Shown: piece after piece, positions 2 through 1,921 of the stretch
Layout: the number at the start of each line of letters is the position of its first letter
How positions within the stretch are numbered: the stretch's first letter is position 1
IMG/VR virus record: IMGVR_UViG_3300047471_000616
Coordinates: 1 to 64,000 of that record
Strand: one strand, 5' to 3'
DNA from: a virus
Length of the DNA stretch: 64,000 nucleotides
Position numbers and translations under genes: made by a program
The notes under the pieces: model-generated
Database searches by the model: none
What the model saw: the letters and a program-made list of their open reading frames with translations, nothing else
What the model was told of the DNA's origin: nothing

Positions 2-1921
2 CGTGGCAACTGCTGTAGAAGCCCCAATCACCACAGACAGTGTCTGGGTTGGAGCCAGCCAAACTACTGCACCGGTAACTGCCGCCTGGGTAGTCGTAGC
101 TACTGCTGTAGTTGCGAAACTGGCTGTAGCATTGACATTAAGGGTTTGTGTGGGGGCAAGCCAGACAACCAGACCAGTCACAGCTGCCTGGGTAGTCGTA
201 ACTGCAACACTAATAAGCGAAACGGTGCCACTAACCGCTACCGACCCGCTGATAGACACCGATCCGGTATTCGTAACCGTGATCGTACCAGTTACAGTCG
301 TTGTAATAGTAGCAGTAACAGTGGCAGTAAGGCTGATCGTCTGGGTAGGTGCCAGCCAGACTACAGCCCCAGTAACAGCAGCCTGGGTAGTCGTAGCTAC
401 TGCTGTAGTTGCGAAACTGGCACCGCTGATAGAAACGGTACCACTAACCAAAACCGAACCAGAAATGGAAACAGAACCAGAAGTTGTTACGCTGACGGTG
501 ACGCCAACGGTAACAGTAATGGTAGAAACCGAAACAGTCCCACTGACAGTAATTGTCTGGGTTGGGGCCAGCCAGACTACAGCCCCAGTAACAGCAGCCT
601 GGGTAGTCGTGGCAACAGCGGTAGTTGCGAAGCTTGCCGTAGCATTAACGGTCATTGTCTGGGTAGGAGCAAGCCAGACAACCATACCAGTTACAGCGGC
701 CTGAGTGGTAGTCATCACCGGGCCTGACAAGGAAACAGTGCCAGTGCCCACTGTAACTGTGCCAGACACTACTGCAGAGACAGATGCTCCTTGCTGAATT
801 GTGACTGAAACACCACTGCTGACAGTAACGGTCCCACTGACAGCAGCGGATACTGTCTGCGTGGGGGCCAGCCAAACCAGCTGCCCAGTTACAGCTGTCT
901 GAGTGGTAGTATTTACTACTCCAGACTGCGTAATTGTACCCGATACAACTGCAGAAACCGAAGCGCCCTGCTGGATAGTGACTGAAACACCAGAACTGAC
1001 GGTAACTGTACCAGATACTACAGCAGAAACTGTCTGAGTTGGGGCCAACCAGACTATTGCGCCGGTTACCGCAGCCTGAGTAGTTGTGGCTACTGCAGTC
1101 GTAGCGAAACTGGCACCGCTGATAGAAACAGTGCCGGAAATGACAACTGTATTGCTGATAGAAACTGTACCACTAACAGCAGGCATACTGCTAATGGAAA
1201 CCGTGCCAGTTCCTATAGTAACCGTCCCGCTGACAACAGCAGAAACAGAAGCTCCCTGTTGAATAGTGACAGAAACACCAGAACTGACAGTTACGGTTCC
1301 ACTGACAGCAGCAGATACTGTCTGCGTAGGTGCCAGCCAAACCAGCTGTCCAGTGGCTGCTACCTGGGTAGTAGTATTTCCTATTCCTGATACGGATACT
1401 GTACCAGACACTACAGCAGATACTGAAGCACCCTGCTGGATGGTAACTGAGACACCAGAACTGACAGTAACGGTCCCACTGACAGCGGGCATAGAACTGA
1501 CAGAAACAACGCCAGTGCTTACCGTTATTGTTCCACTGACAGCAGCGGATACTGTCTGCGTGGGGGCCAGCCAGACTACCGCGCCTGTGACAGCAGCCTG
1601 AGTAGTCGTAGCTACAGCAGTAGTTGCGAAGCTTGCACCACTGATTGAGACTGTACCTGAAACCCCAACTGAACCAGTGACAACTGGTGTCCCTGAGACG
1701 CTGACAGTGCCACTAACCGGGTTTGTAGCAGTAACACTGACGGTGATCCCCAAAGAGCCAGTAACTGGCAATGGGTTAGTAACAGTAACTACACCTCCGT
1801 CAACACCGCTAGTTCCAAGTTGAATTTTGACAGGCTGAAAGATAGCACCACCAACCACGTCGACTGCCATGGTGGCGGTGGCTGATATACCAGTCGACGG
1901 TACGAGGACTATGTCGCCCAT
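2..1921 (-). CDS. Ser/Thr/Val/Ala-rich repeat protein (>640 aa, 3' end outside the window); probable virion surface or fibre protein
   Basis: ATG at 1921 gives MGDIVLVPSTGISATATMAVDVVGGAIFQPVKIQLG...; 9 copies of TTTQAAVTGxxVWLAPTQT, all in one frame, and no stop found in spot checks down to the window edge. Absent from the ORF track because it has no stop in the window. Confidence 0.85.
   Translation of the reverse strand, partial: MGDIVLVPSTGISATATMAVDVVGGAIFQPVKIQLGTSGVDGGVVTVTNPLPVTGSLGITVSVTATNPVSGTVSVSGTPVVTGSVGVSGTVSISGASFATTAVATTTQAAVTGAVVWLAPTQTVSAAVSGTITVSTGVVSVSSMPAVSGTVTVSSGVSVTIQQGASVSAVVSGTVSVSGIGNTTTQVAATGQLVWLAPTQTVSAAVSGTVTVSSGVSVTIQQGASVSAVVSGTVTIGTGTVSISSMPAVSGTVSISNTVVISGTVSISGASFATTAVATTTQAAVTGAIVWLAPTQTVSAVVSGTVTVSSGVSVTIQQGASVSAVVSGTITQSGVVNTTTQTAVTGQLVWLAPTQTVSAAVSGTVTVSSGVSVTIQQGASVSAVVSGTVTVGTGTVSLSGPVMTTTQAAVTGMVVWLAPTQTMTVNATASFATTAVATTTQAAVTGAVVWLAPTQTITVSGTVSVSTITVTVGVTVSVTTSGSVSISGSVLVSGTVSISGASFATTAVATTTQAAVTGAVVWLAPTQTISLTATVTATITTTVTGTITVTNTGSVSISGSVAVSGTVSLISVAVTTTQAAVTGLVVWLAPTQTLNVNATASFATTAVATTTQAAVTGAVVWLAPTQTLSVVIGASTAVAT

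Follow-up and report, generated by a model that had tools for sequence, protein, structure and literature searches.

A nearly charge-free phage repeat protein with a predicted C1q/TNF-like head and a linked TPR-GT41 enzyme: a candidate glycosylated virion fiber

In the Bacillus spore filaments BclA and F-BclA (PDB 1wck and 9h38), a Thr-rich stalk whose repeat number varies among strains is O-glycosylated with an unusual, locally synthesized sugar, and a C1q-like domain promotes trimerization (PMC10470788, PMC12357932). Here we describe a phage protein that resembles these filaments in having a short N-terminal segment that may act as an anchor, a long repeat stalk of variable copy number, and a predicted C-terminal TNF/C1q-like domain. 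Its gene starts within, and runs off the left edge of, a 64,000-nucleotide stretch of DNA (the window) comprising bases 1-64000 of a 96,020-bp IMG/VR virus record of an uncultured phage (IMGVR_UViG_3300047471_000616); we refer to the protein as the fiber. Its modeled head matches the fold of the BclA-type heads at Z 9.3-10. The fiber departs from BclA in its stalk, which lacks GXY triplets and is built of 20- and 24-residue beta-type modules of zero charge, and in its partner enzyme, which belongs to glycosyltransferase family GT41 rather than to the BclA glycosyltransferases; we infer its glycosylation from the genes. With moderate confidence, we regard the protein as a GT41-glycosylated trimeric virion fiber with a C1q/TNF-like tip.

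Two groups of protein glycosylation systems are instructive for comparison. The GT41 enzymes Arabidopsis SPINDLY (SPY), human OGT, and Xanthomonas XcOGT (PDB 7y4i, 8dtf, 3pe3, and 2jlb; PMC9715652) share with the phage enzyme a tetratricopeptide repeat (TPR) N-terminus and a GT41 catalytic domain, and the phage enzyme has two Asn residues at TPR spacing. The phage GT41 differs in having only about four TPRs, in being phage-encoded, in being genetically tied to one giant candidate acceptor instead of hundreds of substrates with regulatory roles, and in the possibility of a heptose-derived donor. In the autotransporters AIDA-I and TibA, a dedicated cytoplasmic enzyme, a BAHT heptosyltransferase encoded next to the passenger, hyper-O-glycosylates it (PMC4358343), and this genome shares with these systems a Ser/Thr-dense repeat protein and a glycosyltransferase encoded nearby, with ADP-heptose-like pathway genes upstream in the window. 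Unlike AIDA-I, TibA, and Ag43, the fiber has no autotransporter beta-domain (no Pfam match in either half), no signal peptide, and no BAHT, and its C-terminus is a predicted jelly roll. It also differs from serine-rich repeat (SRR) adhesins and mucins in lacking dipeptide SRR sequences, an accessory Sec (aSec) signal, an LPXTG motif, and disordered Pro/Thr/Ser repeats, its modules being Val/Ala-rich. The original prediction, made from the letters of the window, had likened the protein to heptosylated autotransporters and serine-rich repeat adhesins; as class membership, neither analogy fits the fiber sequence.

Glycosylated virions and C1q-headed viral fibers have each been described. Mycobacteriophage glycosyltransferases O-glycosylate short C-terminal tails of capsid and tail-tube subunits to form a glycan shield (Freeman et al. 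2023, Cell Host Microbe, cited in PMC12619734). Those enzymes are not GT41s, and the arrangement differs from the dedicated ∼1,700-residue candidate acceptor, GT41, and sugar-synthesis pathway that we read from the genes here. A C-terminal jelly roll on a long repeat stalk is common to fibers of cyanophages A4 (9k09_A) and A-1(L) (8ke9), PRD1 P5 (1yq5), and collagen-repeat proteins of giant viruses in the BFVD database; a charge-free T/S/V/A/G stalk and a GT41 partner have not been described for any of them, and a full-text literature search found no report of a connection between GT41 or OGT and a phage fiber.

Reading frame, modules, and predicted head of the fiber

The window holds the 5′ 38% of the fiber gene (positions 2-1921, minus strand, ATG at 1921), encoding residues 1-640 and open at the left edge. 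The first 127 bases of the record (positions 1-127, inside the fiber gene) are identical to those at its end (G000 95894-96020; G000 coordinates are those of the whole record), the usual signature of a circular assembly. Across the circular junction the frame remains open to G000:92694 (L009:12695-16021, minus strand), giving a full protein of 1,706 residues with zero in-frame stops; the original prediction would have been refuted by such stops, and none was found. The longest exact nucleotide repeat within the coding sequence is 46 nt, which gives no obvious sign of repeat collapse at the join, and from this and from an intact orthologue we judge assembly collapse at the 127-bp overlap unlikely; the exact repeat number stays assembly-dependent. 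The orthologue is an uninterrupted 1,457-residue protein in a close relative (IMG/VR 3300046454_000696; L010:4887-9260), with an N-terminus 90% identical to that of the fiber and the same modules and C-terminus. Because it is intact and of a different length, the fiber gene is evidently real and its repeat number variable among relatives. Comparison of the two gives dN/dS of 0.05 in the N-terminus and 0.16 in the head, and the gene is under purifying selection. With dS between the two phages already ∼1, dating of the duplications by orthologous versus paralogous repeats was uninformative. Two long open frames lie opposite the gene (2-727, plus strand, 241 residues; 3-704, plus strand, 233 residues) and show no sign of being genes; they are likely by-products of repeats that are stop-poor in composition.

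The composition of the protein is extreme. Thr (340), Val (337), Ala (243), Ser (228), and Gly (170) together make up 77% of the 1,706 residues, only 11 residues are charged (six Asp, three Lys, and two Arg), and Glu, His, and Cys are absent. The charges are confined to positions 3-41 and 1563-1692, leaving 1,521 residues (42-1562) entirely charge-free. Ser and Thr account for 568 of the 1,706 positions and for 35% of the stalk. The translation thus agrees with the description of a nearly charge-free minus-strand reading frame of T, S, V, A, and G in the original prediction, as it does with the nine copies of a 20-residue W-module (TTTQxAxTGxxVWLAPTQT) reported there and the variable (V/I)SG(T/S)V(T/S) spacers between them; the full fiber has 25 such modules, exactly nine of them in the window. 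A second unit, which had not been singled out, is a 24-residue Q-module (VTVSSGVSVTIQQGASVSAVVSGT) present in 16 copies, four in the window. Synonymous codon divergence between copies, also proposed from the letters, can now be quantified: the 16 Q-modules are 100% identical in protein and 79% identical in nucleotides; of the codons for the same residue, 55% differ, where random draws from the codon usage of the gene itself would give ∼70%. The W-modules have 85% identity in protein and 73% in nucleotides.

The modules follow an N-terminal segment (residues 1-95; 1637-1921), which contains the only N-terminal charges (D3, D21, K32, and D41), is conserved over its first ∼55 residues across much of the family, and is a candidate virion-attachment part. 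From there, W-module 1 (ATTTQAAVTGAVVWLAPTQT; 1553-1612) and Q-module 1 (1400-1471) are succeeded by W-module 2 (1319-1378), Q-module 2 (1223-1294), W-module 3 (1031-1090), Q-module 3 (935-1006), W-module 4 (854-913), and Q-module 4 (758-829), and then by W-modules 5 (656-715), 6 (554-613), 7 (338-397), 8 (143-202), and 9 (41-100), all on the minus strand.

The fiber belongs to no named family. Neither half matches a Pfam, PHROGs, or NCBIfam family, and a tblastn search of 50,697 deposited phage genomes found no relative. A word-indexed search of 5.8 billion proteins yielded 41 unnamed metagenomic homologues of 630 to 1,215 residues, all with 65-74% T/S/V/A/G and 1-5% charged residues, and nearly all ending in GYLF or GYLFP. 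In 474 W-modules from outside the close relatives of the window, the Trp is invariant, and the positions around it favor Thr at -13 (69%), Ser/Thr at -5 (87%), Gly at -4 (77%), Val at -1 (75%), Gln at +5 (73%), and Ser/Thr at +6 (66%). Given this family-wide conservation, the W-module is a structural or recognition unit and more than low-complexity sequence. A phmmer search with the N-terminal segment found no match among the other proteins of the same genome, and an anchor common to the fiber and the tailspike-like proteins was therefore rejected.

The stalk resembles mucins, as the original prediction put it, in composition; beyond composition the likeness ends, with Pro at 2.5% (43 of 1,706 residues) and modules that are exactly conserved. 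Nor is it collagen-like, as Gly makes up 144 of 1,465 stalk residues (10%) without triplet periodicity. Ser and Thr flanked by hydrophobic residues on both sides are enriched (30%, compared to 21 ± 1.7% in shuffles), a pattern compatible with amphipathic strands but not proof of them. The ESM Atlas was uninformative for stalk structure, with scores of ≤0.79.

The C-terminal head is better defined. Searched exhaustively with HMMER, 1.84 billion proteins yielded 66 representatives that match the last 167 residues, in every case at the very C-terminus, and an AlphaFold2 (AF2) model of the last ∼140 residues, built with a 64-sequence alignment, has ten beta strands with a mean predicted local distance difference test score (pLDDT) of 87.2, exceeding 90 in the core. 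In a VIA-align structural search, this model matched the TNF/C1q jelly-roll fold in many TNF, C1q, and BclA chains (Z 11.7-9 over 118-130 residues at ∼3 Å), including 4-1BBL (11.7), chain A of the cyanophage A4 portal-tail complex (10.9), the Caprin-2 C1q domain (10.4), ExsFA, F-BclA, and the cyanophage A-1(L) short tail fiber (10.0 each), BclA (9.3), and PRD1 P5 (8.7). Foldseek agreed more weakly against the PDB (E ∼1e-3), and against the predicted viral structures of BFVD it returned giant-virus collagen-repeat proteins, 'C1q domain' proteins of uncultured phages, and phage tail or receptor-binding proteins. The head has no Pfam C1q or TNF match at E ≤0.01 (the best hit is DUF6781, E 0.012), and the likeness of the model is at the level of the fold only.

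A TNF/C1q-type head is a classical trimerizing fiber tip. From the modeled head, the position of the gene in the late arm by tailspike genes, and the analogy with BclA, PRD1 P5, and the cyanophage fibers, we consider it very likely that the protein is a trimeric virion fiber with a trimerizing head. On the minus strand, the gene is followed by those for a 440-residue beta-helix protein, a 499-residue pectate-lyase-like tailspike/tail-fiber protein, a 286-residue protein, and the 574-residue TPR-GT41 protein, and then by those for TerL, portal, the major head protein, a TPR protein with a weak GT9-like match, DUF5672, a second Glyco_trans_1_2 protein, a tail protein, and an amidase; the shared strand and order with the tailspike-like, TerL, portal, and major head protein genes place it in the late/virion arm. 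We have also considered that the protein is non-structural, not part of the virion, or on the host surface, acting in superinfection exclusion or as a matrix or adhesion protein released at lysis. Its lack of any PHROG or Pfam structural match and an N-terminal segment shared with no other virion protein would be expected of such a protein, whereas the late-arm location, the head fold of phage tail fibers and viral collagen-like fibers, and an N-terminus that by its sequence is without signal-peptide features would not; in a distant relative (L043), moreover, the fiber directly follows the portal gene. We regard this explanation as very improbable.

The GT41 partner and its co-occurrence with the fiber

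The gene for the 574-residue TPR-GT41 protein (G000 86623-88347) lies beyond the window, four genes downstream of the fiber and on its strand. The protein matches PF13844 (E 8.4e-43; cut-off 25 bits), the profile of CAZy family GT41, together with several TPR families, and among structures it matches SPINDLY (7y4i, E 2.5e-68 over residues 117-564), the bacterial OGT homologue 5djs (6.5e-64), human OGT (5e-42), and XcOGT (1e-33). In SPINDLY, mutants of H495 and K665 are dead, S496 positions the acceptor serine, and an asparagine ladder in the TPRs binds extended substrate (PMC9715652). The phage equivalents of SPY H495, S496, and K665 (OGT K842) are H218, S219, and K385, invariant in 10 of 10 phage GT41s, as are N55 and N89, which are exactly 34 residues (one TPR period) apart; position 123 is not Asn. 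Judged by its sequence, the protein is a bona fide GT41 with intact catalytic residues. At the positions of SPY N661 and T748 the phage enzymes show no conservation, and donor binding may therefore differ from that of SPY. In several relatives the GT41 gene is present as two diverged copies in the same genome (L018:5258-7093 and L018:12305-14092; L026/L041; L028/L035), which in one case flank the fiber, and these pairs may reflect two sugars or two classes of site.

We found that the fiber and the GT41 gene co-occur whichever of them is used as the query. Searching with the fiber gave 13 viral loci, and in all nine with at least 3 kb of downstream sequence a GT41 homologue (39-87% identity) follows the fiber on its strand; the contigs of the other four end too early. 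An independent search with the GT41 gave 23 loci, and wherever a contig extends at least 4 kb upstream (15 of 15) a fiber precedes the GT41 gene, with 365-1,855 residues, 0.6-4% charged residues, and a GYLF-type end. Two GT41 loci that seemed to lack a fiber are second GT41 copies on contigs with the pair elsewhere. Including L019, the fiber and GT41 genes are found together in 16 contigs plus this genome, always fiber first and on one strand; the two genes are -1 to 21 nt apart in five contigs and ∼300 nt apart, without an intervening open reading frame (ORF), in another. No gene other than GT41 is conserved next to the fiber. The closest cellular GT41s, all alphaproteobacterial and including Bradyrhizobium (30-40% identity), have a fiber neighbor in zero of eight cases.

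The original prediction had proposed as the partner enzyme the adjacent Glyco_trans_1_2 GT-B-like protein (5040-6185, minus strand). This gene occurs only in the two closest relatives, and the consistent partner is the TPR-GT41 enzyme beyond the window. The broader expectation, that the repeat proteins accompany glycosyltransferases in other phages, held in every viral contig with enough sequence, and no homologue without a glycosyltransferase was found among loci with adequate flanking sequence. The TPR protein with the GT9-like match was considered as a conserved heptosyltransferase partner and rejected, as it is absent from the five other fiber genomes.

The linkage extends across divergent phages. 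In the five best-covered relatives, the major capsid protein (MCP) does not match that of this phage and TerL matches in only two (27-30% identity), yet all five share the GT41 (41-68%), a radical SAM enzyme (56-61%), and an HldE-like enzyme (45-64% identity); by these comparisons, the fiber-GT41 pair sits on unrelated phage backbones. Five further records that contain the radical SAM sugar operon (see below), one of them a complete 70-kb genome, have neither a GT41 nor a fiber head, a negative result that is meaningful because the same profile matches five of the five known fiber genomes. Because the operon records that lack the GT41 also lack the fiber, the two are present or absent together.

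From the co-occurrence and the chemistry of the GT41 family, we consider it reasonably likely that the stalk is glycosylated by the GT41. In the mechanism that we propose, a short conserved N-terminal segment with the few charges would be the attachment piece, followed by an uncharged stalk of ∼1,470 residues (25 W-modules, 16 24-residue modules, and VSGTVS-type spacers) and by a head that would nucleate trimerization, bind a receptor, or both, as in BclA, PRD1 P5, and cyanophage tail fibers. The stalk would be the dedicated acceptor of the phage TPR-GT41, a protein O-glycosyltransferase of the OGT/SPINDLY family. In the host cytoplasm this enzyme would feed the unfolded chain along the putative asparagine ladder of its TPRs and attach sugars to Ser and Thr before or during folding. 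The donor would be an unusual sugar made by the HldE-like, GmhA-like, O-methyltransferase, radical SAM, and thiamine diphosphate (ThDP) enzymes encoded upstream of the fiber; it is probably the product of this heptose-like pathway, which we hold with less confidence than glycosylation by the GT41. The glycans could render a chain that has no charges hydrophilic, protease-resistant, or shielded, and their replacing charges as a solubilizing, protective surface is the least certain of these four proposals. A bolder version, which we regard as tentative and somewhat doubtful, is that the fiber represents an undescribed class of phage appendage, an uncharged scaffold turned into a polysaccharide-like brush by GT41 addition of a phage-made tailored (methylated and/or branched) heptose-type sugar to hundreds of Ser and Thr residues, with the W-module as docking or sequon unit.

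Several observations weigh against a glycosylated trimeric beta fiber. The original prediction called the protein a beta-strand fiber, and the fiber-type protein stands, but modeling lent the beta-strand fold no support: an AF2 monomer model of residues 1-330 (36-sequence alignment) gave a pLDDT of 52 and no usable fold, and both 'beta fiber' and 'trimer' rest on analogy with the head. All members of the fiber family are metagenomic, and many of the co-occurring loci come from few related lineages, such that the counts are not independent events. GT41 enzymes in other organisms have many substrates, and genomic adjacency is no proof that a neighbor is the acceptor. An alternative would be that the protein is a C1q-headed virion fiber that is itself unglycosylated, that the GT41 and sugar genes modify the capsid, tail, a host protein, or the envelope, and that the linkage reflects shared late-operon organization. 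Consistent with this, the fiber and GT41 genes are not adjacent in this genome but are separated by three others; three further GT-like late genes lie beside the capsid gene and could have other virion proteins as glycosylation targets or encode the enzymes that actually consume the sugar; the sugar pathway is also found in phages without GT41 and fiber, and need not make the GT41 donor; and the only documented phage virion glycosylation is that of capsid and tail-tube C-termini, as cited in PMC12619734. However, such an arrangement would not readily account for a fiber and a GT41 that are gained and lost together on unrelated backbones, abut (-1 to 21 nt) in five contigs where no other gene is conserved beside them, and include a stalk so rich in Ser and Thr, and we consider it unlikely. 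We therefore favor GT41 glycosylation of the stalk. As to the glycosylated virion fiber of the original prediction, a long, Ser/Thr-dense, fiber-type protein in the late arm is supported, as is its tie to protein glycosylation by comparative genomics; its virion location and its glycosylation we infer.

If the bolder version is true, the system would include the first GT41 with a heptose-type donor and would be the first glycosylation system with dedicated acceptor, enzyme, and donor in phages of Gram-negative bacteria. A portable cassette of fiber, GT41, and sugar pathway on unrelated backbones would show virion glyco-engineering to be a recurrent phage strategy. The fiber and GT41 would likewise constitute a natural one-enzyme/one-substrate pair for GT41 enzymology, and surface glycans on phage fibers would matter for how phages recognize hosts, persist in the environment, and are recognized by the immune system. 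A run of 1,521 uncharged residues with identical modules and scrambled codons could inform beta-fiber design and the stabilization of repeats against recombination.

Sugar-synthesis genes and the wider neighborhood

The sugar cluster lies on the minus strand upstream of the fiber. It comprises a fusion of an HldE-like nucleotidyltransferase and a PfkB kinase (7946-9307), a GmhA-like sedoheptulose-7-phosphate isomerase (7359-7961), a NanM-like putative sugar O-methyltransferase (6197-7366), the Glyco_trans_1_2 gene discussed above, a 66-residue ORF (4847-5047), a radical SAM/SPASM enzyme (3693-4850), and, as its last gene, a ThDP (acetolactate-synthase-like) enzyme (1975-3696), 53 nt upstream of the fiber gene. 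The pathway looks heptose-like from its profile matches, which fall below the curated cut-offs (GmhA, 96-100 bits versus 209-276; HldE domain, 109 versus 181). The fusion has the adenylyltransferase first and the kinase second, the reverse of HldE, and no GmhB-like phosphatase was recognized in Pfam and family scans of the cluster. The HldE-like and radical SAM genes are present in six of six fiber genomes.

The radical SAM enzyme raises the question as to whether the fiber is modified in another manner, in the way of ribosomally synthesized and post-translationally modified peptides (RiPPs), for example by cross-linking of the W-module Trp or by epimerization of residues, with or without glycosylation. 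SPASM enzymes are mostly peptide or protein maturases, and maturases are the best NCBIfam matches here, all far below cut-off; the enzyme is present in all six fiber genomes, and the W-module with its invariant Trp is strongly conserved. Against this, the radical SAM core begins at residue ∼56, no RiPP recognition element (RRE) or PqqD-like domain is seen, and the 66-residue ORF upstream, which we considered as a PqqD-like RRE, has no Pfam match even at E ≤5. The gene is also embedded between the HldE/GmhA/O-methyltransferase and ThDP genes, and loci centered on other family members likewise place it in HldE-like/GmhA-like/(O-methyltransferase)/radical SAM/ThDP operons, in many cases with stop and start codons that overlap. 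Members of the radical SAM family (3,838 matches at E ≤1e-20) greatly outnumber those of the fiber family and also occur in the fiber-less phages described above. Because the enzyme is embedded in sugar operons, including those without a fiber, it most likely tailors the sugar rather than the fiber, and we consider RiPP-like modification of the fiber very unlikely. Searches of the PDB gave the enzyme only marginal matches (SkfB and DesII, E ∼0.006-0.01), which do not decide its substrate.

Sugar operons in phages without GT41 and fiber are located at L056:7926-12981, L057:5763-12969, L054:6471-13458, and L058:8222-11164. Downstream of these operons are short, low-charge, T/S/V/A/G-rich ORFs, such as one of 308 residues (L056:19326-20252) with 78% of these five residues.

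Further upstream in the window is a NusG-family protein (11741-12223, minus strand; PF02357, E 1.6e-13), which precedes the long minus-strand sugar/fiber/late operon and may be an RfaH/LoaP-like processivity factor for a very long transcription unit. The ORF at 9311-9946, near the HldE-like gene, has no family match. Outside the window, the TPR protein with a weak GT9 (heptosyltransferase-family) match (22.6 bits; G000 74072-75517, L053:12072-13517, minus strand) comes directly after the major head protein gene, followed by DUF5672 and the second Glyco_trans_1_2 protein. It may represent another way of glycosylating proteins that is specific to this lineage and possibly serves the capsid. Portals of podovirus type from Bradyrhizobium, Myxococcus, Rhizobium, and Brucella phages share no more than 30-34% identity with the portal of this phage, and relatives of the portal and GT41 weakly suggest an alphaproteobacterial host. 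An HNH endonuclease gene is situated among the late tail and lysis genes (L053:7700-8464, minus strand; G000 69700-70464). In the distant relative L043, the fiber gene (5054-6541) starts inside the end of the portal gene (2812-5061; region L043:2812-6541), an arrangement that hints at the fiber being a neck- or portal-proximal appendage in some lineages.

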